This document shows positions 15,731-63,200 of a DNA stretch of 64,000 bases, piece by piece. Numbering within the stretch: the stretch's first letter is position 1; the number at the start of each line of letters is the position of its first letter. A program made the translations under genes and the position numbers. Under the pieces are notes generated by a model. The model saw only the letters and a program-made list of their open reading frames with translations, was not told the origin of the DNA and made no database searches. Origin of the DNA: Candidatus Sericytochromatia bacterium (GTDB lineage: Bacteria > Cyanobacteriota > Sericytochromatia > S15B-MN24 > UBA4093); NCBI GenBank assembly GCA_036676985.1, contig JAKFBU010000027.1:224001-288000 (forward strand), in the 5' to 3' direction.

Positions 15731-16123
15731 ATGAGAATCTACGTAACCTCGGTCTTCGTGGACGACCAGTCCAAGGCGCTCACCTTCTACACCGACGTCC
15801 TCGGGTTCCGGAAAAAGCACGACATTCCGCTCGGCGAGCACTCGTGGCTCACGGTGGTGTCCCCCGAGAATCCGGAAGGGACGGAATTGCTGCTCGAGCC
15901 CGACGTCCACCCGGCGGCGAGGGCGTATAAGCAGGCACTCGTGGAGGACGGCATCCCCTGTGCCTCCTTTGCGGTCGACGATGTTCCGGCGGAGCACACC
16001 CGGCTCTCGGGGCTGGGCGTACGCTTCACCCAGCCCCCACTCGACATGGGGAACGTCGTGACGGCGGTCTTCGATGACACGTGCGGGAACTTGATCCAGA
16101 TCGTCCAGATGAAGGCGGCCTAA
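15731..16123 (+). CDS. VOC/glyoxalase family protein
   Basis: VFVDDQSKALTFYTDVLGF, FDDTCGNLIQI. Confidence 0.95.
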   Translation: MRIYVTSVFVDDQSKALTFYTDVLGFRKKHDIPLGEHSWLTVVSPENPEGTELLLEPDVHPAARAYKQALVEDGIPCASFAVDDVPAEHTRLSGLGVRFTQPPLDMGNVVTAVFDDTCGNLIQIVQMKAA

Positions 16124-16490
16124 GGGAGCCAGCGAATTGGGTGAGCGGCGGCAGATGAAGGCGGCAACGCCGTGAATTCGCCCGTACGCTGAGCACGAAA
16201 CAGCAAGGGAGCCTGGTGGATGACCCACCGGGCTCCCTTGTTGTTCGTGCGCTTGCCGGGAGGGTCTGGGATCTCGACTTACCCCAATGCTGTCGACTAT
16301 GGGTCCTGGCGTCCCATTCGGAATCAAGCGGGCTCAATGGAGGAAGGAGAGCTAGGCAGTTCCAGAAGGGCACTAGCGACGCTGGGTAACAGGAACGTCA
16401 TTCATCCTGATATTGTTCCGGGTCCTGGATCGGCCCTAGAAAGGGGGAGGTTGCGGGAGCAACGAGGCAACGCTCGACAAGGACAGAGGG

Positions 16491-17954
16491 GTGAGCATGA
16501 GAAGAGGAAGGATACGTCTGCTTGTTTTGTCTGCGGCGTTCGCCGGGATCGTGTCCTGCGCCGTTAGCACGGCATGGCCTACCGCCGCGTCCTACAGGCC
16601 GGCGTCCGCCTCGGCATCGCCGACCTCGACTCCCATCGAGACGATTGGATCCTTCGAGGACGTGGTGGTCGATGGAAACGTCACCGATTCCTATTTCAGC
16701 CTGGCGGTCGACATCAACAAGGACGGAAGGTTCGACATCGTCAAGCTGAATCTGGGGCTCGCTGCCGGGGCACGAGGGCCGAACGATCCTCCGCAGGACC
16801 AGCCGGGCCAGATCGTGTGGTACGAGAATCCGAGCTGGAAGAAGCGTGAGATAGCGAGCCTGTCCGTTCCGGTCAGCATGCACCATGCGGATGTAGACGG
16901 TGACGGCTACCAGGACCTGGTCGTGGGTGACCAATATGGGCTTTGCATCTTCAAGTGCAAGCCAGAGAACGGGCGCATCGCATGGTTACGGAACCCCGGA
17001 GCGAACGCCAGCGCGACCTGGAGCCTCCACCCCATCGGGCACCTGATGGCGGTTCATCGCCTGAGGTTTGGTCACTTCACGCAGGACCGGTCACTAGAGC
17101 TCATGGCGTTTCCAGTTGTCGGCGGTACGGATGGTGACGTGCATGCGCCGCTGAAAGTCTTGCTGTTTTCCAGGCCGAGCAACGTCCTCGATGCCAAGCA
17201 GTGGCCAAGCACCATCGCAAACGACACGGTGCGAGCCATGCACGGTGAAACGGTCGGCAAGTTCTCAGGAACGGGCTCGCGCCTCGATTCCGTCCTGCTG
17301 GCAAGTGAAGAAGGCATTTCCCTGCTGCGGTACTTGCCCAACGGAACGTGGGCCACGACCAACATCGCACAAGGAGAGCCGGCAGACACGACCTCGCGGA
17401 ATCCGATCCAATGGAAGGGGAGTGGTGACGTGGACGTGGGCAAGGTCGGCGCGGACAACACGGCCTATATTGTCGCGCTGGAGCCCTTCCACGGGAAAAA
17501 GCTCGTCGTGTACACGAAGGCTGACCAACCTCAGGTGGATCCGAATAACCCGATCGGGAGCGCCCGATGGACCAGAAGGGTCCTCGATACCTTTGGAACG
17601 ACCCAACCCAAAACGGATGAGGGCCCGGGCCACCATGTGCTGACCGGCGACTTCGATGGGGACGGAAGCGACGAGTTCCTCGTGGCGTTACGAGGGCCCA
17701 TGCCGACCCAAGGGGTGTATCTGTACAAGGTGGTCGATCTTGCCGCGGGCAAGTTCGTCCGGCAGCGACTTTCCACCATCTCTGCCAGTCGCCTGGCGAT
17801 CGCGGACTTCGATGGCGATGGTCGGCTCGATGTTGCCAGCGTTCCCTACGTGGTGACGACCTTCTTCAAGGCACAAGACCCCAAGGTGATGCTGTATTTG
17901 AATCGCACCCCTCATGCCAGGCCGGCGGTCAGGGCCGACTTCGTGAAGCCATAG
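16491..17954 (+). CDS. secreted FG-GAP beta-propeller, aldos-2-ulose dehydratase N-terminal domain-like
   Basis: signal peptide; WYENPSW, DQYG, WLRNPG, HRLRFGHFT, EPFHG, DGDGSDEFLVA motifs recalled from fungal AUDH. Confidence 0.8.
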   Translation: MSMRRGRIRLLVLSAAFAGIVSCAVSTAWPTAASYRPASASASPTSTPIETIGSFEDVVVDGNVTDSYFSLAVDINKDGRFDIVKLNLGLAAGARGPNDPPQDQPGQIVWYENPSWKKREIASLSVPVSMHHADVDGDGYQDLVVGDQYGLCIFKCKPENGRIAWLRNPGANASATWSLHPIGHLMAVHRLRFGHFTQDRSLELMAFPVVGGTDGDVHAPLKVLLFSRPSNVLDAKQWPSTIANDTVRAMHGETVGKFSGTGSRLDSVLLASEEGISLLRYLPNGTWATTNIAQGEPADTTSRNPIQWKGSGDVDVGKVGADNTAYIVALEPFHGKKLVVYTKADQPQVDPNNPIGSARWTRRVLDTFGTTQPKTDEGPGHHVLTGDFDGDGSDEFLVALRGPMPTQGVYLYKVVDLAAGKFVRQRLSTISASRLAIADFDGDGRLDVASVPYVVTTFFKAQDPKVMLYLNRTPHARPAVRADFVKP

Positions 17955-17969
17955 GGTTCTCCGCCGTAC

Positions 17970-18010
17970 CAAAAAAGGGGCCCAGTAACCCGGAGCGTTA
18001 CTGGGCCCCT
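17970..18010. terminator. strong hairpin/terminator
   Basis: A-tract + AGGGGCCCAGTAAC-loop-GTTACTGGGCCCCT. Confidence 0.7.
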
Positions 18011-18149
18011 AAATACCCGCAACGGGACAGTGATCGAACGTTTGTGGTCCACTTCATCGCGGCCCTGACCGAGCCCGATGCTCCCGCCGGACAGGATGGA
18101 TCTGACTGGCATTCGAGCACTGTGACGGACGAGGTGCTACCATTGCGGC

Positions 18150-19211
18150 ATGTTGCCGACCGCCGCCGCCATCACCCAAGCTCTGCACGCCGAAGGGTTC
18201 CTGCAAGCTGGCGAAGTTGTCGCCGTCGAAGTGGTCGAATCGTTTCAAGCACTTGCCACCGCTGTCTACCGGTGCCGGCTTCGTTATCGCGACGAGACCT
18301 CGCAGGGCATGCCCGAGACCATGATTTGCAAGGTCTATGGCCCCGAGTGGTACCAGCGTGGAGGGTTGCAGGAAGTCCTGGCTTATCGGCAGATCACAGC
18401 GGCACTGCGCCTATCCATCGCCCCCACGCTCTACGGCCTCATCGACGATCCAGCCGCTGAGACCTGCGTGCTCTTGATCGAGGATCTCGAAACTTGCCAT
18501 CAGCCGGTCGCATCGCCCATGGCCGATGCTTGGCTGGACCTCCTCGTGGACACCCTGGCCGACTTCCATGCCCAGTGGTGGGAGGATCCTGTGCTTCATA
18601 CCGCAGCCTTCCTCCAGCCGGAGGACACCGTGATGCGCATGGCGCAGGCGATTTCGCCCCAAGGGATTCAGGCAAACGCGGCATCAGCGAGAATTGCCGT
18701 CTCGCGCTTCCGGTCGGAGTATGGATCTGAGCTCAGCGAGGAAGAAGCTCACCTCCTCGCGCGACTGGACGCTCGATGGGCTGGCGCTTTCATCGAGCGT
18801 ACCGTCGACCAACGTGGCCTGACCCTGCTGCATGGCGATTTTCACCTCCTCGGCAACGTCTTCACCGCCAGGCAACCCGACGCGGTCAGCCCGATCAAAG
18901 TCATCGACTGGGGCCAGGTCAAGCGTGGCCTGGGGCCGCACGACCTGATGTTCGCCTTGCTGTCGGTTGACGCTGTGGACCGCCGAAGCCGTGACCTCGA
19001 GTTGCTGCGGCGTTATCACCAACGACTCCTGGCGCGAGGAGTCAATCACTATGGCTGGGACCAGTGTCTCTGGGACTATCGCTTCTCCCTCCTTACGAAC
19101 GTCTACCAATCGATCTTTCAGGGGAGCTTGCGATGGTTCAGGAGAACGCTCGATGTGGTCGACCTCTGGGAGGCGCAAGAGCTGCTCAATGGGAGCGCGA
19201 ACACGATCTAG
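18150..19211 (+). CDS. APH/ecdysteroid-kinase-like phosphotransferase
   Basis: LLIEDL, LADFHAQWW, TLLHGDFH, VIDWG, G.HDL. Confidence 0.88.
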   Translation: MLPTAAAITQALHAEGFLQAGEVVAVEVVESFQALATAVYRCRLRYRDETSQGMPETMICKVYGPEWYQRGGLQEVLAYRQITAALRLSIAPTLYGLIDDPAAETCVLLIEDLETCHQPVASPMADAWLDLLVDTLADFHAQWWEDPVLHTAAFLQPEDTVMRMAQAISPQGIQANAASARIAVSRFRSEYGSELSEEEAHLLARLDARWAGAFIERTVDQRGLTLLHGDFHLLGNVFTARQPDAVSPIKVIDWGQVKRGLGPHDLMFALLSVDAVDRRSRDLELLRRYHQRLLARGVNHYGWDQCLWDYRFSLLTNVYQSIFQGSLRWFRRTLDVVDLWEAQELLNGSANTI

Positions 19212-19235
19212 CCTGCCGATGCTCGAACGCCCAAC

Positions 19236-19272
19236 GAAAAAGGCCTCGACTCAATTCACTTGAGTCGAGGCC
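19236..19272 (-). terminator. tRNA-Glu terminator
   Basis: GGCCTCGACTCAA-loop-TTGAGTCGAGGCC then TTTTT on the minus strand. Confidence 0.8.
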
Positions 19273-19278
19273 AATTAG

Positions 19279-19350
19279 TACCCCCGACGGGAGTCGAACC
19301 CGTCCTACCACCTTGAAAGGGTGGTGTCCTAACCGATAGACCACGGGGGC
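19279..19350 (-). tRNA. tRNA-Glu (anticodon TTC), CCA not encoded
   Basis: GCCCCCGTGGTCTATCGGTTAGGACACCACCCTTTCAAGGTGGTAGGACGGGTTCGACTCCCGTCGGGGGTA folds as a cloverleaf. Confidence 0.97.
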
Positions 19351-28797: not shown

Positions 28798-28931
28798 ACC
28801 CCCCCTTCCCCCCCTGCCTCGCAAGGGGGGCACAAAGAGTCCTGCTGCGCAGGTTTTGACGCGTGAGAAACCTTTGAGGAATCTGCCCCCGCCAGGGGGC
28901 CGTCCACCAAAAGCCCCCCTTGCGAAGCAGG
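28798..28931. repeat. REP-like inverted-repeat doublet, right arm interrupted by IS481 (continues 30201-30220)
   Basis: 34-bp arm ACCCCCCCTTCCCCCCCTGCCTCGCAAGGGGGGC; the reconstructed right arm matches its reverse complement with 1 mismatch. Confidence 0.85.
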
Positions 28932-30200
28932 TGTATAGACCGGACACATGGGTAACAGGTGTTCGGGGACATGGGTAACACTTACCCATCCACTCTGAGG
29001 TCTACTTCTGCCACCCGTTGGTGGCAGAAGTAGACCTCGAATCTTCCGTCATCCAGGGTGGGGCGCAGGGCTACGGGCAGCCCCTTGAAAGCAATGCCCA
29101 CCTTATGAATTCGGTTCTTGTAATGGATTTCGCCCTTCTGCTGGACCTTACGCACGATATCGTCCGGACCGTATTCGATGGGCGGTAGCTGCTCGGGGTA
29201 GTCACGCCAACTCACCCGGTAGCGGCTTCCCGGGACGTCCATGTTCAAGGCCGAGTGCGGGCGTTCGTAGTTGTAGACGTGCAGCCACTCGTCAAAGTGG
29301 TACTGGCAGTGTTTCAGGTCTCTAAAGCTACGGTTGTTAAGGACTTCCGCCTTGAGCGTCCGGTGGAAGCGCTCGTCCTTTCCCTGCGTCTGGGGGTGGA
29401 AAGGCCGAGAATGACTCACACGGATACCCAGCCGCATGAGCCATACCGTGAAGGCCGTGTAGTCATGCATCCCAGAGGATCCCCAAGGCGGCCCATTGTC
29501 CATGGACATCCTGTCGGGGAGACCATATCGCCGGAAGGCCTCGGTTAAGCGGGATTGGACCGTGCCTCCCTTTTCGTTTGGGCACGCCTCGAGGACCAAG
29601 GCGTAGCGCGAGTGGTCGTCTAGAACCGTCAGGGGATGGCATTTGCCTTCCCCCGTCTCGAAGTAGCCTTTGAAATCCATCTGCCAGAGTTGGTTGGGAG
29701 CCTTGTGCTCGAAACGTTGCCAAGGCTTGTGCTTCTTGGCTTCCTTGGGGTCGAGAAGACCATGCTTACGGAGGATCTCGGTGATCGTCGAAGCCGCGGG
29801 CACCCCTTCTACCCCTAGCTTGATCAAGCGAGACCTGAGCAATCGCCCACCCCAAGCAGGGTGTGCCTGACGTAGCGTCAGGATTCGCTCCACTACTGCA
29901 TCAGGCGTCTGCTTGGGTGACGAATGGGGACGTCTAGTTCGGTCTTCTAGACCGCTCAGTCCAGCTTCTTTGAAGCGATGGAGCCACTTGTAGGCTGTCT
30001 TCGGGGCGATTCCAAAGCGTCGACAAAGTTGAGAGATATTAGCCCCCGGGGCACTGGCCAGGAGCACGAACTCGGTTCGCAAAGACATGGTTGAAACCTC
30101 TCGCCATGGCATCGATCGTCCTCCTTCTTGGAAGACGATCGTGCCTCAGAGTGTTACCCATGTCTCCGAACGAGTGTTACCTATGTCCCCGGTCTATACA
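28932..30200 (-). mobile_element. IS481-family insertion sequence, 1269 bp, 5-bp target duplication GCAGG
   Basis: TGTATAGACCGG...CCGGTCTATACA terminal inverted repeats with internal repeated ATGGGTAACA; GCAGG at 28927-28931 and 30201-30205; lower GC than flanks. Confidence 0.96.
28982..30112 (-). CDS. IS481-family DDE transposase
   Basis: MPWREVS start, HTH, WQMDFKG, LDDHSR, DNG, PQTQGKDERFHRTLK. Confidence 0.96.
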   Translation of the reverse strand: MPWREVSTMSLRTEFVLLASAPGANISQLCRRFGIAPKTAYKWLHRFKEAGLSGLEDRTRRPHSSPKQTPDAVVERILTLRQAHPAWGGRLLRSRLIKLGVEGVPAASTITEILRKHGLLDPKEAKKHKPWQRFEHKAPNQLWQMDFKGYFETGEGKCHPLTVLDDHSRYALVLEACPNEKGGTVQSRLTEAFRRYGLPDRMSMDNGPPWGSSGMHDYTAFTVWLMRLGIRVSHSRPFHPQTQGKDERFHRTLKAEVLNNRSFRDLKHCQYHFDEWLHVYNYERPHSALNMDVPGSRYRVSWRDYPEQLPPIEYGPDDIVRKVQQKGEIHYKNRIHKVGIAFKGLPVALRPTLDDGRFEVYFCHQRVAEVDLRVDG

Positions 30201-30231
30201 GCAGGGGGGGAAGGGGGGGTGGTAACTCGGT

Positions 30232-36117: not shown

Positions 36118-36351
36118 ATGGCACAGTGCCCGGAATGCACCTACGACGTCCCCGCCGGCTCGCCGGTCTGCTCGACCTGCGGGGCGAACATGCCCGTGGG
36201 TGACAGCGAGGCGCCGGCGGGTAAGACGGCCTCCAAGGGGATGGACGAGATGCTCCTGCGGGGGGTGATCGGGTTTCTGATCGTGTGCGTCTTGGGGGCG
36301 GCCGCTTTCACGGTCTATTCCATCTTCGCGCAGATCCTGACCAAGCCATAA
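36118..36351 (+). CDS. zinc-ribbon + TM small protein
   Basis: CPEC...CSTCG, C-terminal TM helix. Confidence 0.8.
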   Translation: MAQCPECTYDVPAGSPVCSTCGANMPVGDSEAPAGKTASKGMDEMLLRGVIGFLIVCVLGAAAFTVYSIFAQILTKP

Positions 36352-36414
36352 GGAACCCGTTCGCCTTTCGACCTGGCTCAAGACGAACGGTTCCTTATTC
36401 CCTCGTCGTGGCGC

Positions 36415-37741: not shown

Positions 37742-38608
37742 ATGATGGGCATCTTGTGGGCGGCCGTGGCCTCCATCGGCTGGGGCACCGCCGACTTCTT
37801 CGCCAAAGTGAGCTCCGAGCGCATCGGCGCAAGCTCCACCCTGTTCTGGATGCAGGGCGTGAGCGCGCTGGCCCTGGGCCTGCTCATCCTGCTCACGGGC
37901 GCATGGCCCGCGGCTCCTGGCTGGGCCTGGGCCGGGGCCCTCGCGCTCGGCCTGAGCAACATGGTGGCCGTCTTCTTCCTGTACCGCGCCTTCGAGGTGG
38001 GCAAGCTCTCCCTGGTCTCGCCCATCGCTTCGAGCTTTCCGGCCGTCAGCCTCCTGCTCGCCCTGATCTTCCTCGACGCCCCCTGGACGCCCCTCAAGGC
38101 GGCGGGCATCGTGACCATCCTCGGAGGCACGCTCCTCGCCTCCCTGGTCCCGGGCGACGCATCGGCCGAGGAGCGCCTGCGCCCCGTCGCCAACGGCGTG
38201 CCCGAGGCCCTCGTGGCATGCCTCGTCACGGGGGGCACCATGTTCGGGCTCGCCTACGTGGCCGAGCCGCTCGGCAGCCTGACGTCGACCTGGGTCCTGC
38301 GGGCGGTGGCCACCGCCCTCCTCTTGATCGGCCTGGGCCTGCGGCGGGCCATCGTGGCGCCGCCCACGGGGCGCCTCTGGGCCGTGGTGCTCGCGGTGGC
38401 GGCCTTCGACACGCTCGCCTTCGTGGGGTACAACCAGTCGCTCGTGGGCGGAGAGGTGGGTCTCGCCGCCCCCATCTCGGGCACGTTCGCCATCGTGACG
38501 CTGGTGCTCGCACGCGTGGTGCTGAAAGAGCGCCTGAAGCCCCACCAGTGGCTGGGGGTGCTCGCGGTGCTCACGGGAATCGGGCTGGTGTCCCTGCCTC
38601 AGGGCTGA
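37742..38608 (+). CDS. EamA/DMT-family transporter
   Basis: two repeated halves, about 10 TM, VLKERL. Confidence 0.9.
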   Translation: MMGILWAAVASIGWGTADFFAKVSSERIGASSTLFWMQGVSALALGLLILLTGAWPAAPGWAWAGALALGLSNMVAVFFLYRAFEVGKLSLVSPIASSFPAVSLLLALIFLDAPWTPLKAAGIVTILGGTLLASLVPGDASAEERLRPVANGVPEALVACLVTGGTMFGLAYVAEPLGSLTSTWVLRAVATALLLIGLGLRRAIVAPPTGRLWAVVLAVAAFDTLAFVGYNQSLVGGEVGLAAPISGTFAIVTLVLARVVLKERLKPHQWLGVLAVLTGIGLVSLPQG

Positions 38609-38931
38609 ACCCGCAGGTGCTCCACCTCGGGGGCGATCGCCGCGAGGGCGATCGCCCCCTTGTCCGTGAGCGAGCGCCACGTCATGACGAGCACGCCCTT
38701 GCGCAGGGTCTCCTCGCTGTGCTGGCGCAGGAAGCGCACGTCCTCGCCCAGGAGGATGCTGCCCTGCTCGCGACCCTCGGGGCGCATGCCGCCCAGCTCG
38801 TCGGCCAGGTAGGCCGTCAGGTCGTTGACGAGCTCCACGTTCTCCTTGTCGTCCAGGGTGAGGCGCAGGGTGAGCTCGTAGGGATGCTTGGGGCCGGGCT
38901 CGGGTTCGGCCCGCTTGAACCAGTTGCGCAT
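38599..38931 (-). CDS. hypothetical protein
   Basis: GGAGG RBS, ATG MRNWFKR. Confidence 0.65.
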   Translation of the reverse strand: MRNWFKRAEPEPGPKHPYELTLRLTLDDKENVELVNDLTAYLADELGGMRPEGREQGSILLGEDVRFLRQHSEETLRKGVLVMTWRSLTDKGAIALAAIAPEVEHLRVQP

Positions 38932-38950
38932 GCGCGTGCCTCCAAGAAAC

Positions 38951-38980
38951 GCGAGGGAACCGGTCTCCCGGTCCCCTCGC
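38951..38980 (-). terminator. terminator hairpin downstream of the DUF1292 gene
   Basis: GCGAGGGGACCGG-GAGA-CCGGTTCCCTCGC + GTTTCTT on the minus strand. Confidence 0.6.
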
Positions 38981-38994
38981 AAGTCTGGCCTTTT

Positions 38995-39074
38995 AGAGCA
39001 CCTAACAAAACCAGGCATGTGAAACCTTTGGCCGCCTATCGGCGGCTCGTAGGAACAGTCTTGTTAGGCGCTCT
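38995..39074 (+). repeat. 80-bp palindromic miniature element, copy 1 (intergenic)
   Basis: ends AGAGCACCTAACAAAAC ... GTCTTGTTAGGCGCTCT; homologous to 42180-42259 on the minus strand. Confidence 0.9.
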
Positions 39075-39080
39075 CGTGGC

Positions 39081-39347
39081 CTAGTGGTGGGCGTGGCCCT
39101 CGAGGTGCGAGATGACGTGGTTGAACTCGTTCTCGTCCTCGATGTTGACGAGCGTGTCGTTCTCCATGCGCATGAGGAGCACTTCGGGCTCGTCGGCCTC
39201 GACGTTCTCGGGCTTGGTCAGCAGGGCGTACTGCTTGCCGTGGATCTCGACGACGTCGAGGATGACGAAGTCCTCTTCGTTGCCGTCCTCGTCGACCATC
39301 GTGATGACGCTCAGTTCCTGCTCGTCGTCGTGTTCGTGCTCAGCCAT
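39081..39347 (-). CDS. DUF1292 domain protein
   Basis: ITMVDEDGNEEDF..LDVVE..GKQYALL...IEDENEF. Confidence 0.88.
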   Translation of the reverse strand: MAEHEHDDEQELSVITMVDEDGNEEDFVILDVVEIHGKQYALLTKPENVEADEPEVLLMRMENDTLVNIEDENEFNHVISHLEGHAHH

Positions 39348-40909: not shown

Positions 40910-42289
40910 CTACTTCAGGGCGGCGAGGAACTCGTCCCACTGGGTCTTGGCGGCAAACGAGGTGTCCTTGTAGACGGGATCGACCTGGCCCTTGAGCGGC
41001 AGGTAGATCGAGAGGCCGCGGGGCACCTTCTTCTCCTCGCGGGCGCTGCGGGACATGAGGATGGCCCCGCGGCCGTTCTTGAAGAGGGCGTCGTCGACGC
41101 GCTGGCAGGCGGCCTGGACGCGGGCGTCGGGCACGCGCAGCTTGAGCTGGTCGGCGACCTCGTTGAGGTCCCGGTGGTCGAAGTCCGTCTTGTCGTAGCC
41201 CGAGACCGAGAAGGGCTCGACCTGCTTGAGGGAGAGCTGGATGGCGCTCTTGTACTGGGGCATGGCCGCCATGAGGGCGCGCGCCAGCTCGTCGACGGCC
41301 GAGGCCACGTCGTCGGCCTTGGAGAGGTCGATGGCCGACAGCGTGAAGAAGCGCTTGTCGTCGCCCTTGCGGTTGGCCTTGAGCACCAGGGTGCGGCCCA
41401 TGGCCGCCGCGTCCTGGACGGGCTTCTTGGCGAGCTCGGCGAGGGTCTTGTCGTAGTCCATGCCGAGCGGGTAGGAGGCATCCTCGCTCGCGACCATGAC
41501 CTTGGCGGCGTCCTTGAGCTCGTAGGCGACCTCGGCGGTGGCCATCAGGCAGGCGTCGAAGGAGACGAGGTCCAGCTTGCGGCCGCCCGAGCCGCCCTTG
41601 AGGGCCTGGGCGAGCTGCGGCAGGCGGATGATGGAGGCGGCCATGTCGTCCTGGGCGATGCCGTAGTAGCCGCCGCCGTGGCTGTTGATGTCGAGCCAGC
41701 GGAACTGACCGGGGTAGTCCCCGAAGCCCCACTTGACCGCACGGCGCAGGATCTCGGGCGAGCCCGTGTTCATGTCGCCGCGCTTGTCGGCGGGCACGTA
41801 GGGGCTCGTGACGGCCGCGGGCTTGGCATCCTGGCGGACGTAGTAGCGGTAGGTGTTCCGGGGACCGAAGTCGTCGGTATAGGCGAGCACGTTGACGTTC
41901 TGGCTGGAGCCCGCCTTCTCGAGGGTGTTCAGGTGGTCGGAGAGGGTCGTGCCCAGGTTGTTCTCGAGGGCCTTGTAGGTGAGGAAGGTGACGGGCTTGG
42001 TCTTGCCGACGGTGGGCAACTGCTTGACGAGGGTGCCCTGGGCCGTCTCCTGGAGCCTGGCCTTGGTGATCTGCTGCTCGATCTCGGGGTAGTCCGCGAG
42101 CGCCTCGAGGCTGTCGCCGGCTCCCATGGGGAGCGGCCCCCCGGCCAGACCGCAACCGGTCAGGGCGTAGAGGCTGATGAGAGCGCCCGACAAAACTGTT
42201 CTTTCAAGCCGCCGGATGGCGGCCATAGGCTTCACATGCCTGGTTTTGTTGGGTGCTCTCAAGGCCAGTAGTCCAAGGCGTCGAGCCAT
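40910..42289 (-). CDS. clostripain-family (C11) cysteine peptidase lipoprotein with an in-frame repeat insertion in its signal peptide
   Basis: ENNL, DINSHGGG, SFDACLMA, lipobox LTGC. Confidence 0.92.
   Translation of the reverse strand: MARRLGLLALRAPNKTRHVKPMAAIRRLERTVLSGALISLYALTGCGLAGGPLPMGAGDSLEALADYPEIEQQITKARLQETAQGTLVKQLPTVGKTKPVTFLTYKALENNLGTTLSDHLNTLEKAGSSQNVNVLAYTDDFGPRNTYRYYVRQDAKPAAVTSPYVPADKRGDMNTGSPEILRRAVKWGFGDYPGQFRWLDINSHGGGYYGIAQDDMAASIIRLPQLAQALKGGSGGRKLDLVSFDACLMATAEVAYELKDAAKVMVASEDASYPLGMDYDKTLAELAKKPVQDAAAMGRTLVLKANRKGDDKRFFTLSAIDLSKADDVASAVDELARALMAAMPQYKSAIQLSLKQVEPFSVSGYDKTDFDHRDLNEVADQLKLRVPDARVQAACQRVDDALFKNGRGAILMSRSAREEKKVPRGLSIYLPLKGQVDPVYKDTSFAAKTQWDEFLAALK
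42180..42259 (-). repeat. 80-bp palindromic miniature element, copy 2 (in frame within a CDS)
   Basis: AGAGCACCCAACAAAAC ... GTTTTGTCGGGCGCTCT on the minus strand. Confidence 0.9.
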
Positions 42290-42348
42290 CCGTCACTCCC
42301 GGGAAAGTAAGAAGAGAGGTCCCCGTGCCGGGGACCTCTCGGCGAGGG

Positions 42349-43233
42349 TTACTGCTCCGAGCGGTAGTCGCCGGTCCAGATGTCGCGGGCCGTGCTCTCG
42401 AAGACCTCGTAAGGCATGTGGAAGTAGCCGCTGTCGCCCCAGGCGTCACCCCACGAGTTGCGGACCGTCACGATCTGCTTCTGGTTGTCGTAGCCGACCG
42501 CGAGGACCGCGTGGCCGCCCAGGCGCTTCTCGCCGGCCTTGGGAACGGGCATCATGCCGTCCTTGCCGATGCTGCGGAAGCTCTCCATGACGTCGTAGGC
42601 GAAGAGGACGGGCATGCCCTTGGAGAGCGCGACCTTGGTGTCCTCGAGGCCGTTGATGCGGATGAACTGGTCGTACTTGAACTCCTTGGCCGTGTCGTAG
42701 GCGGCGGCAGGAGGCGTGAACGAGAACTTGGTGATGTCGTAGGCCCAGCTCTCCTCGGTGGCGATGCCGGTGCGGGAGACGACCTCGACGTTGTCGGTGT
42801 TGGTGGAGCCGGAGTCGCGGCCCTTGTCCCAGCGCGATTCGTAGTAGAGGAAGAGGGCCGACAGGGGCACCTGGCGCTCGCCGTCCTTGCGGATCATGTA
42901 CTCGCGGAAGCCCTTGCCCATGGCGAAGGCGGTGCAGGCGCCGAGCTTGCCCTGGTTGGCGACGGGCGAGCAGTACTGGCGGTTGTCCATCTTCACGGGC
43001 AGGAGGGTCTGGCGGGGCAGCTTGGTGACCTTGTGCTTGTTGGCGACCTTCTGGTAGCGGGTGTCGCTGAAGCCGAGCACGAACTCCTGACCGCCCTTGG
43101 TCTTGATCGAGGGCAGCTCCTCGACGTCGGACGGCATGCGGGCGGTGACGCCGGAGGCTCCGCAACCGACCACGGAGGCCACGACGCTCGCGAGGATGGC
43201 AACCGGCAGGACCCGCTTCAACTTCTTCGACAC
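42349..43233 (-). CDS. papain-family (C1A) cysteine peptidase lipoprotein
   Basis: lipobox VVGC, NQGKLGACTAFA, GHAVLAVGYD, RNSWG. Confidence 0.95.
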   Translation of the reverse strand: MSKKLKRVLPVAILASVVASVVGCGASGVTARMPSDVEELPSIKTKGGQEFVLGFSDTRYQKVANKHKVTKLPRQTLLPVKMDNRQYCSPVANQGKLGACTAFAMGKGFREYMIRKDGERQVPLSALFLYYESRWDKGRDSGSTNTDNVEVVSRTGIATEESWAYDITKFSFTPPAAAYDTAKEFKYDQFIRINGLEDTKVALSKGMPVLFAYDVMESFRSIGKDGMMPVPKAGEKRLGGHAVLAVGYDNQKQIVTVRNSWGDAWGDSGYFHMPYEVFESTARDIWTGDYRSEQ

Positions 43234-54675: not shown

Positions 54676-54750
54676 CAGCACCTACTCACTATCCCGACAA
54701 CAAATTCCGTTTGTCTTGAGCCAGGTCGAAAGGCAAACGGTTCCTTACCC

Positions 54751-60259: not shown

Positions 60260-63200
60260 ATGCTGGATCGCATCATTCAGTGGGCGCTGGGCAACCGCCT
60301 TCTGGTCCTGGCCTTAGCGGCCGCCCTCCTCATCGGTGGAACGTGGACGGCCAGCCGGATGCCGGTGGACGTGTTCCCCGATCTGACGGCTCCGACGGTC
60401 ACCGTGCTTGCCGAGGCCCATGGCCTCGCTCCCGAGGAAGTCGAGAGCCTGGTGACCTTCCCGATCGAAACGGCGATGAACGGCGCCACGGGCGTCCGCC
60501 GGGTTCGCTCCAGCACGGCCGCGGGCATTTCCGTCGTCTGGGTCGAGTTCGAATGGGGCACCGACATCATCCGGGCCCGTCAGCTCGTCAACGAGAAGCT
60601 GCAGCTCGCCCAGGCGAACTTGCCCGAGGATCTGCCGCCGCCCGCGCTCGCCCCGGTGTCGTCCATCATGGGCGAGATCATGTTCATCGGGATGAAGGGC
60701 AATGACCGGGCCACGGCCATGGACGTCCGCTCCGCGGCGGACTGGGTCGTGCGTCGTCGCCTCCTGGCGTTGCCCGGCGTGTCCCAGGTCATTCCCATGG
60801 GGGGGGATGTCAAGCAGTTCCAGGTGCTTGTCGATCCCGCCAAGCTCCAGGCCCGTGGGCTGTCGCTGAGCCAGGTCGCCGACGCCGTGTCGCGATCCAA
60901 CCGCAACGTCTCGGGGGGCTTTTACGTCTCGGGAGGCCAGGAGTACTTGATCCGGGGCCTCGGGCGGGTGCAAGGCCCTGAGGACGTGTCGGCGGCCGTG
61001 GTCGCGCTGCGCAACGGCGCCGCGGTCCGGGTGGGAGACGTCGCCGAGGTGGGGGTCGGTCCGGCCCTCAAGCGTGGGGTGGGCTCGCTCAACGGCGAAC
61101 CCGCGGTCGTGCTCGCCATCCTCAAGCAACCCGACGCCAACACCCTCGAACTGACCGAGCGGGTCGACCTGGCGCTGGACGAGATCCAGGCCTCCCTGCC
61201 ACCGGGCATCACCATCGACCGGCACAACTTCCGACAGTCGGACTTCATCGCGCGGGCCGTCACCAACGTGGAACACGCTCTGCGGGACGGGGCCATCCTG
61301 GTGGCGGTCATCCTCCTGGCCTTCCTGCTCAACGTGCGGGCGACCGTCATCTCGCTCATCGCCATCCCGCTGTCGCTCCTGGTGGCCATTCTCGCGCTGA
61401 AGGCCATGGGCGGCTCCATCAACACCATGACCCTCGGCGGCCTGACCATCGCCATCGGCGCCCTGGTGGACGACGCCATCATCGACGTCGAGAACGTCCA
61501 CCGGCGCCTCCGGGAGAACCGCGCGAAGCCGGAGGCCGAACGCCGCCCCGCCCTCGCAGTGGTCTTCGACGCCAGCCGCGAGGTGCGCGGCGCCATCTTC
61601 TTTGCGACCCTCATCATCATGCTGGTCTTCGTCCCGTTCTTCTTCCTCTCCGGGGTGGAAGGACGCCTCCTGAAGCCGCTGGGCATCTCGTACCTGGTCG
61701 CCATCTTCGCCTCTCTGGTCGTGGCGCTGACCGTGACGCCGGTGGCTTGCTACTACTTGCTCGGCCGCGAGCGGGGGCACGGCGAGGAGCGCGAGAGTGT
61801 CGTCGTCAGGTCTCTCAAGCGCGCTTACCAACCGCTGCTCGAGAAGGCGCTCGTCCATCCCCGAACGGTCATCGGCGCCTCGGTCGCCCTCTTGGTCGTC
61901 GCGCTCGCGATGGTGCCGTTTCTCGGACGCGCCTTCCTGCCGGAGTTCAACGAGGGCGCGCTGACCGTGAGTGCGGTGACGCTGCCGGGCACGTCCCTGG
62001 AGACGTCGGACGACCTGGGCCGGCGCCTGGAGCAGATCATGCGGTCCTTCCCGGAGGTCGAGACGACCTCGCGGCGCACCGGTCGGGCCGAGCTCGACGA
62101 GCATGCGCAGGGCGTCAACTCCTCCGAGATCGACGTGGTCTACCGGCTGAAGGATCGCTCGAAGGAGGCCTTCCAGGACGAGCTTCGCAAGGCCGTGTCG
62201 GTCCTGCCGATGAGCATCAGCTTCGGGGGCCCGCTGGCGCACCGGATCGACCACATGCTCTCGGGCACCCGCTCGAACATCGCCGTCAAGGTCTTCGGCG
62301 AGGATCTCGGGCGTTTGCGCACCATCGGCAAGCAGATCGAGGCGGCCATGCAGGACGTTCCCGGCGTGGTGGACCTGTCGGTGGAGCAGCAGGTCGAGGT
62401 TCCACAGCTGGCCATCCGGTACGACCGCGCGGCCCTGGCTCGCTTCGGGCTGACCACCGGGGAGGTGGGCGAAGCCATCGATATGGCCTTCCAGGGCGAG
62501 GTCGTCTCGAAGGTGCTGGAAGGGCAGCGGACCTATGACCTGCTGATCCGGTACCCGCAGAGCGCGCGACAAGACCTGGCGGCGATCGCCAATACGCTGG
62601 TGGCCCTTCCGGAAGGCGGGATGGTCCCGTTGAAGTCGCTCGCGACCCTGACCCAGGAGCGGGGGCCCAACACCATCTCGCGCGAGAACGTCCAACGCAA
62701 GATCGTCGTCTCGGCGAACGTGTCCGGCCGGGATCTGGCCCGCACGGTGGAGGATATTCGGGGCGCGATCGCCGCGAAGGTGAGCATGCCGACCGGTTAC
62801 TACGTGGTCTATGGGGGTCAGATCGAGAGCGCAGATGCCTCCGCGAAGCTCCTGGGCTGGCTGACCGCGGCGGTGATCGTCGGCATCGCGCTGATCCTCG
62901 TGGTCGCGCTCCGGTCCTGGCGGGCGGCCCTCATCGTCATGGCGAACCTGCCGCTCGCCTTGATCGGCGGGGTGCTAGCGGTCCGGGCCTCGGGGGGCGT
63001 GCTCTCGGTGGCCTCGCTGGTGGGGTTCATCACGCTGTTCGGGATCGCAACCCGCAACGGGCTGATGATGATCACGCACTACCACCACCTCTTGGAGGTG
63101 GAGGGCAAGGACTTCCGCACCGCCGTCGTCCAGGGCTCGCTGGAGCGGCTGAGTCCCATCCTGATGACGGCGCTCACAGCGGGCCTGGCCCTGATCCCCC

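Follow-up and report, generated by a model that had tools for sequence, protein, structure and literature searches.

The window that we have analysed, i.e. the 64,000-nt stretch between positions 224,001 and 288,000 of contig JAKFBU010000027.1 of a Candidatus Sericytochromatia bacterium (assembly GCA_036676985.1), encodes a lipoprotein of the C11 (clostripain) family of cysteine peptidases, and the signal peptide of this protein contains 27 additional residues that are encoded by an 80-nt palindromic element. The explanation that we put forward with high confidence is that the element is a transposable element of the miniature inverted-repeat type (MITE) derived from an insertion sequence (IS) of the IS5 family, that it has inserted in frame into the signal peptide of the C11 protein and has been tolerated there, and that the gene most likely still works. 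The element recurs in the window and belongs to a dispersed family, the homologous proteins have the corresponding empty site, the ends of the element are shared with IS5-family elements, and its copies are associated with a duplicated 3-nt target.

The inserted codons of the C11 peptidase gene

Two copies of the element, copy A inside the C11 gene and copy B in an intergenic position, are present in the window in opposite orientations; their coordinates and those of the surrounding features are listed in Table 1. The initial annotation of this stretch had described an 80-bp repeat with terminal inverted repeats at the position of copy A, recurring at 38995-39074, and this description has been borne out: the two copies are 85% alike (BLASTN within the window, E = 2.7e-20), and a repeat search of the window has also recovered them as an inverted pair with 84-nt arms, 85% complementary, at 38992-39075 and 42179-42262. 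For a 17-nt terminal motif, the window has exactly four occurrences, one at each end of each copy; a match to this motif with one mismatch, at 62559, is not an element, and blastn and nhmmer have found no third copy in the window. Each copy is predicted to fold into a long hairpin that encloses an inner G+C hairpin, the free energies for copy A being -50.9 kcal/mol (z -6.7) on the + strand and -42.6 kcal/mol (z -5.5) on the - strand, and those for the two strands of copy B -44.1 and -37.8 kcal/mol; over the four folds the z-scores range from -3.6 to -6.7, and in none of them was any of 200 shuffles as stable.

The 459-codon frame of the C11 gene is fully open, its G+C content at third codon positions (GC3) is 0.94, and residues His204 and Cys247 of the encoded protein are invariant over 20 aligned sequences. 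The N-terminal translation that was given in the initial annotation agrees with that of the open reading frame (ORF). Lipoprotein signal peptides are composed of a positively charged n-region, a hydrophobic h-region and a lipobox that ends in the cysteine at which signal peptidase II acts; in the C11 protein, a 13-residue hydrophobic stretch precedes the lipobox, and the inserted residues lie on the N-terminal side of this arrangement, at the junction of the first two regions. With the insert, the signal peptide grows from 19 to 46 residues and from a net charge of +2 to one of +8, and neither the best hydrophobic window nor the lipobox is disrupted.

The in-frame insertion of 27 codons, which was also part of the initial annotation, is confirmed by the comparison with homologous proteins. 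A search with the C11 protein has returned 196 relatives, and the query has been aligned with 19 of the best matches; the named relatives are proteins from metagenome-assembled genomes (MAGs) of Candidatus Sericytochromatia and Cyanobacteria. The 27-residue segment is absent from all 18 aligned homologues that have a complete N-terminus; P0005 is N-terminally incomplete. The closest homologues with an empty site are P0003 and P0004, which are 82% identical to the C11 protein and 432 residues long, i.e. 459 minus 27; their N-termini, MARRLGFFALLSLFALTGC and MARRLGILAFISLFGLTGC, have the initial MARRLG and the lipobox in common with the protein of the window. In a wider comparison of 46 N-termini, the segment was carried by none apart from P0002, an independent, near-identical record (two substitutions) that has been called from the ATG inside the element and includes the last 16 of the inserted residues; those of the 46 that are complete mostly end in lipobox-like motifs, as judged by reading.

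The inserted codons have a GC3 of 0.59, compared with 0.94 for the whole C11 gene, and because of this difference copy A appears to have inserted recently, which fits its absence from the relatives that are 82% identical.

Upstream of the C11 gene, a gene for a papain-family (C1) peptidase is located at 42349-43233 on the same strand (-), and only its terminator-like hairpin and approximately 25 nt separate the two genes; a promoter would not fit between this hairpin and the ribosome-binding site of the C11 gene. Copy B would be transcribed on the strand of the family alignment if it is co-transcribed with its neighbours. An ORF at 38599..39018 (-) begins at an ATG within copy B and continues in frame across the terminator-like hairpin into the next gene, for which the ATG at 38932, with GGAGG 7 nt upstream, is a more plausible start.

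Table 1. Coordinates of the C11 peptidase gene, the two element copies and the adjacent features, as positions of the window.
Feature	Coordinates	Strand	Details
C11 (clostripain-family) cysteine peptidase lipoprotein gene, P0001, 459 aa	40910..42289	-	Pfam Peptidase_C11, E 1.1e-36
27 inserted codons, residues 11-37	42179..42259	-	between codons 10 and 11; junction of charged n-region and hydrophobic h-region
Native ATG	42287..42289	-	GGGAG at 42296-42300, 6-nt spacer
Internal ATG supplied by the element (Met22)	42224..42226	-	within predicted hairpin; no clear Shine-Dalgarno sequence
Lipobox Cys46 codon (LTGC, residues 43-46)	42152..42154	-	expected cleavage and lipidation site
Terminator-like hairpin of upstream C1 peptidase gene	42314..42340	-	about 25 nt ahead of the C11 start codon
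MITE copy A	42180..42259	+ (family-alignment orientation; antisense to host gene)	core GAGC...GCTC at 42181-42258
Left flanking triplet of copy A, TGA	42178..42180	+	decayed 3-nt target duplication; middle base is a third codon position
Right flanking triplet of copy A, TCA	42259..42261	+	second copy of the duplication; one base unlike the left triplet
MITE copy B	38995..39074	-	intergenic; 6 nt past the DUF1292 gene stop codon, ahead of terminator-like hairpin
Terminator-like hairpin downstream of copy B	38950..38981	-	
DUF1292 gene	39081..39347	-	3' end adjoins copy B

A dispersed family with IS5-type ends

Further genomic copies, which the initial annotation had led us to expect, exist: a species-representative genome collection, scanned with a 22-nt degenerate pattern of the element ends, has yielded 44 loci, twelve of which contain a full-length element according to an nhmmer model built from the two copies of the window. 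Seven of these twelve belong to the MAG DATNQJ01 and five to the MAG JAKFCW01 (Candidatus Sericytochromatia LC031), both of which are high in G+C. As the scan requires one exact end or more, these are minimum numbers of copies. The loci from the scan have nothing but the element in common with the window. The G+C content of the window is 66.8% and that of the DATNQJ01 loci 64-69%; the DATNQJ01 records (L002, L011, L014, L027, L028, L030 and L038) are titled Stenomitos sp., a label that may not fit the organism, given this G+C content and the presence of the same MITE as in the Sericytochromatia MAG.

The alignment of the 14 copies has revealed a 78-nt core, GAGC...GCTC, with terminal inverted repeats of 17-18 bp and a conserved inner hairpin; the outer stem is paired in 96.6% of its cells across the 14 copies. 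There is no coding capacity for a transposase, the only open frames being 27 codons long. One of the copies, at positions 1425-1522 of locus L039, has an additional 18-nt internal segment that forms a small hairpin of its own and corresponds to six codons, so that the frame stays open.

Perfect direct triplets (TAG, TTA, TAA and TTA) flank four of the 14 copies, and in five more the two triplets differ by one base; among six other elements with the same ends, four (L001, L044, L019 and L040) are flanked by perfect triplets. Direct-repeat flanks (8 cases) outnumber those of the inverted type (3 cases), so that the triplets are duplicated target sequence and do not prolong the inverted repeats. 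The triplets that delimit copy A have been modelled on the perfect TTA, TAA and TAG duplications of the other copies and elements. A TWA target has a parallel in the eukaryotic PIF/Harbinger-Tourist elements. As the 78-nt core and the 3-nt TWA/TNA duplication add up to 81 nt, each insertion adds 27 codons. In the consensus, two of the six reading frames are open; owing to the palindrome, both begin with RAPNKT and end with LLGAL, with a hydrophobic stretch coming after a basic one. The element is thus short and free of a transposase gene, it has terminal inverted repeats and a target duplication, and it occurs as dispersed copies with filled and empty sites, all of which characterise a MITE.

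An IS with the same ends, also sought in the initial annotation, has been found in the form of transposase-bearing elements of the IS5 family, in other taxa and not in this lineage. The most complete example, in Massilia (L044), is 1439 bp long; both of its ends are perfect, TTA is duplicated at its flanks, and it encodes a 267-aa transposase that reaches 238 bits with the NCBIfam model transpos_IS5_3 (NF033580, cut-off 110) and matches Pfam DUF4096 and DDE_Tnp_1; beside the transposase, an ORF at 2402-2776 of this locus encodes a SpoIIAA-like protein of 124 aa and may be a passenger gene. In a 725-bp deletion derivative from another MAG (L001), remnants of a transposase lie between perfect ends that are flanked by a TTA duplication, and the sub-terminal bases are similar to those of the MITE. 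The matches outside the two MITE-bearing MAGs are not noise: of the 32 loci that lack the MITE, 20 have a relative of the same transposase next to the matched end. In the IS5-family copies of eight Massilia loci (L005, L007, L012, L015, L031, L020, L033 and L034), the repeat is confined to the 3' end of the transposase, where it overlaps the stop codon.

Four short elements of 101-231 bp (L017 1340-1522, L019 1292-1522, L036 1399-1522 and L040 1422-1522) have the same terminal repeats around unrelated cores; they occur in MAGs that we count as four other phyla, with Omnitrophota, Rhodothermales and Verrucomicrobiota among the hosts, and two of them are flanked by perfect triplets, TAA or TTA. 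MITEs seem to have arisen repeatedly from the same IS5-type ends. To judge from these ends and the duplicated target, the element is an IS5-derived MITE and not a new kind of repeat.

The only IS of the window, a complete member of the IS481 family at 28914-30218, has been rejected as the cognate element, its ends being unrelated to those of the MITE. It encodes a 376-aa transposase (28982..30112, -; Pfam rve, rve_3 and LZ_Tnp_IS481), its 69-nt inverted ends are 80% complementary, a 5-bp direct repeat, GCAGG, is present at both junctions, and its G+C content of 0.58 is below that of the surroundings.

In-frame insertions and their probable consequences

Of the 14 copies, twelve are intergenic and two lie in genes, both times in a signal peptide. 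The genic copies have been identified by picking the real frames according to the G+C content of the codon positions, with inspection of three candidate frames that span an element. The second in-frame case, at locus L028, is located after residue 9 of P0122, a 244-aa DUF3108_like lipoprotein of a family that is unrelated to C11; the orientation and the frame of the element are the same as those of copy A, and it likewise sits where the charged start gives way to the hydrophobic core, at the end of which there is a lipobox. The 27 residues are absent from all ten aligned homologues of P0122, and P0123, which is 91% identical to it, is 217 residues long, i.e. 244 minus 27; for this gene as for the C11 gene, the empty sites are those of protein sequences. 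The host gene at L028 has a native ATG with GGAGG 6 nt upstream, and a GTG at the place equivalent to the internal ATG of copy A.

The duplicated triplet has the same codon register in both coding insertions, its middle base being the third position of a codon, and if the triplets are taken as TNA, the reconstructed empty sites translate to the residues of the closest homologues, i.e. AFIS in P0004 and RLTA in P0123. Several of the intergenic copies are adjacent to a stop codon or to a ribosome-binding site, as would be expected of a TWA target in a genome with 66% G+C. Further in-frame cases have been sought at the protein level in two ways, both of which are weak tests: a 46-aa query compared with longer proteins has recovered only P0002 among 669 candidates, and a profile of the inserted peptide has given four matches among 1.84 billion representatives, with no in-frame case. 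Three of the four are unrelated tandem-repeat proteins and the fourth, P0135, is apparently a spurious ORF with its start inside an element copy.

The course of events that best accounts for these findings is as follows. The MITE derives from an element with an IS5-family DDE transposase, and it is presumably moved in trans by a transposase that recognises its ends and duplicates a 3-nt TWA/TNA target. Copy A landed in the signal-peptide region of the C11 gene, in an open frame, after the split from the relatives that are 82% identical. The inserted peptide only extends the positively charged N-terminal part and spares the hydrophobic core and the lipobox, so that the precursor would still be exported, cleaved and lipidated at Cys46; because cleavage at Cys46 should release the same mature enzyme, the insertion is likely to be tolerated and near-neutral. 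The start of translation is most likely still the native ATG, favoured by its good Shine-Dalgarno sequence and by its position outside the hairpin: in the predicted centroid fold, the native ribosome-binding site and the ATG are unpaired and the internal ATG is inside the hairpin. The reason that we prefer for the location of both coding copies in signal peptides is a filter of tolerance, by which insertions at such places would be the ones to persist.

Several points weigh against this explanation. At both coding insertions the target duplication has decayed, to TGA/TCA for copy A and to AGA/TCA for L028, and the exact junctions are reconstructions; the export and the cleavage of a 46-residue signal peptide are predictions from the sequence; and the insertion is young and may have a mildly harmful or inactivating effect. 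With regard to the parentage, no IS5 transposase is present among the 43 GC3-supported ORFs that were scanned (of 52 in the window), no transposase-bearing element with these ends has been seen in the loci of the two MITE-bearing MAGs, and most of the Massilia copies have the motif only at the 3' terminus of the transposase gene, the other end beginning with GGGTCG.

The alternative that survives best concerns the start codon: it is possible, though we favour the native start, that the internal ATG (Met22) has become the working start, with a 25-residue signal peptide, the N-terminal half of which is encoded by the element, and with the old start and its ten codons left as a relic. The record P0002 has been called from this ATG, the 25-residue form would have a net charge of +2 with the same hydrophobic core and lipobox, and L028 has a GTG at the equivalent place; however, a strong GGGAG or GGAGG is still present in both genes at a distance of 6 nt from the native ATG, nothing comparable precedes the internal ATG, which moreover lies inside the hairpin of -42.6 kcal/mol, and the ten upstream codons are still in frame, their first six residues matching those of the homologues. 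The mature protein would be identical either way. The GC3 values of the two coding copies (0.59 and 0.56) are the highest among the 12 copies measured, marginally so (the others range from 0.37 to 0.52), and are not informative about the start codon that is used.

Somewhat more doubtful is the proposal that the family is kept mainly as structured RNA, for example to stabilise transcripts, to provide processing sites or to act as weak terminators in the spacers of operons; the strand of the family alignment would then be the one that functions, and the coding insertions would be by-products. Several features speak for it: the non-Watson-Crick pairs of the outer stem are 38 G.T against 4 A.C, 28 of the 38 arising from two positions that are fixed in all 14 copies; the strand of the family alignment folds better in 11 of the 14 copies, by a mean of 4.3 kcal/mol; and three pairs have changed on both sides (4 cells), with 4 cells reached in 2 of 500 shuffles and 3 pairs in 21 of 500, a control that overstates covariation, since the copies are related. 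The alignment strand is, by reading, the sense strand for 8 intergenic copies, antisense for 2 and ambiguous for 2, but the split of 8 to 2 is not significant (two-sided binomial, approximately 0.11). A terminator-like hairpin with a run of T is found within the element; on the other hand, inverted repeats are needed by the transposase anyway, and no Rfam family matches the element. At the gathering thresholds of Rfam 15, the only match in the window is a tRNA, and scans by E-value have given no match centred on the element, only weak ones far below these thresholds, in the flanks of copy A and around the terminator hairpin next to copy B; one of the latter, to Atu_L6 (9.9 bits vs 100), runs into the element. 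These points are suggestive only, and a role as RNA would be compatible with the identity of the element as a MITE, not exclusive of it.

It is unlikely, in our judgement, that the insertion has damaged the C11 gene, with a long, highly charged signal peptide and a hairpin 28 nt past the start cutting translation or export, and a pseudogene in the making. The youth of the insertion (GC3 of 0.59 vs 0.94), the rise of the net charge to +8 and the great stability of the hairpin would all be in keeping with damage; yet the 459-codon frame is open and the His/Cys pair is conserved, a like insertion survives independently in a second lipoprotein gene of another genome, and the independent record P0002 also includes residues that are encoded by the element.

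Bolder, and in our view also unlikely, is the idea that the element is shaped for secretion signals, as a mobile signal-peptide module that could persist preferentially in genes for exported proteins, or retune or even create export signals. If true, this idea would explain why both coding insertions are at the same sub-site of the signal peptide and in the same frame; it also fits the invariable addition of 27 codons, the basic-then-hydrophobic frames, which are similar to an n-region with the start of an h-region, and the in-frame ATG or GTG of many copies. The notion that the 27 residues are ancestral and have been lost elsewhere, or are an artefact of assembly, which has only the open reading frame in its favour, can be practically dismissed, as it is already contradicted by the presence of the same DNA in non-coding places and in an unrelated gene, by the lack of the segment in the homologues compared, and by the element-encoded residues of P0002.

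Relation to known repeats and other features of the window

In-frame fusions of small repeats with genes have already been documented for the Rickettsia palindromic elements (RPEs) and for BRE, ERIC, BOX and the Anabaena MITEs (PMC10969869, PMC3184786). The analogy with RPEs that was drawn in the initial annotation describes the behaviour of the element well: RPEs are also short, palindromic, mobile repeats that are found in frame within protein genes, where they add a peptide that is compatible with function (PMC10969869, PMC3184786). The comparison is one of behaviour and not of sequence, and we have not filed the element as an RPE, as its host is not a Rickettsia. RPEs measure approximately 100-150 bp, belong to Rickettsia and have nearly half of their copies in ORFs (PMC10969869), whereas the present element measures 80 nt and has two of 14 copies in genes; unlike RPEs, it occurs in a high-GC relative of cyanobacteria, both of its genic copies lie in signal peptides that are cleaved off, and its parent family, IS5, is recognisable. 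The refuting outcomes that the initial annotation had named were all looked for, and none has materialised. The initial proposal of a coding-compatible repeat family that remodels proteins is thus upheld with respect to the in-frame family and weakened with respect to the remodelling, as only two of the 14 copies are genic, both in signal peptides that would be removed, leaving the mature proteins unchanged.

The IS5-family elements of the IS427/IS1031 group have a 3-nt insertion site, with duplication of TAA (PMC2516522). The present element is like these 3-nt-target elements in its terminal sequence, as found in L044 and L001, and its TTA/TAA duplication is as in IS1237/ISLxx6 (PMC2516522); unlike them, it has no transposase, and neither the window nor the loci of the MITE-bearing MAGs contain an autonomous partner. 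ERIC, BOX/RUP, BRE, the Anabaena MITEs and Nezha are similar in being short, with terminal inverted repeats and a stable RNA hairpin, mostly intergenic and occasionally fused in frame (PMC3184786, PMC10969869), and they differ in sequence family and host lineage. The REP/BIME repeats, which are associated with RAYT tyrosine transposases, are likewise palindromic, repeated and mostly extragenic; REPs, however, are 20-40 bp long, with a GTAG or CGTC tag at one end (PMC3733652), and an identity with REP/BIME is ruled out by the 80-nt size, the GAGC...GCTC ends, the duplicated target and the ends in common with DDE (IS5) elements.

We have found no literature on MITEs in Sericytochromatia, and a literature search with an 11-nt word from the end of the repeat has returned unrelated primer matches only; PMC2653234 has proved irrelevant, and PMC12730594 gives no detail on the target site. 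Repeated insertion at the same sub-site of a signal peptide is not mentioned in the excerpts of PMC3184786 and PMC10969869 that a non-exhaustive search has covered.

The element accounts for the odd, over-long N-terminus of the C11 protein, and with it a MITE family of identified IS5-type parentage becomes known from a lineage that is related to cyanobacteria and has hardly been studied. The two independent cases form a natural experiment on tolerance, in which the charged/hydrophobic junction of a lipoprotein signal peptide can apparently take an insert of 27 residues. One and the same element can also mislead gene calling, as is seen in P0002 (called from the internal ATG), in P0135 (apparently an ORF seeded by the element) and in the ORF that starts in copy B.

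Two further observations concern other parts of the window. The stretch 16000-19350, next to a tRNA gene at 19279-19350 (-), has a lower G+C content (approximately 0.61) and encodes FG-GAP/beta-propeller and phosphotransferase-family proteins; no integrase was seen in it. A second small palindromic repeat of approximately 34-48 nt occurs at 36349-36397 and 54707-54747, the two copies being 94% complementary, with the loop inverted between them; the copy at 36349-36397 forms a long hairpin between two convergent genes, in the manner of a bidirectional terminator.

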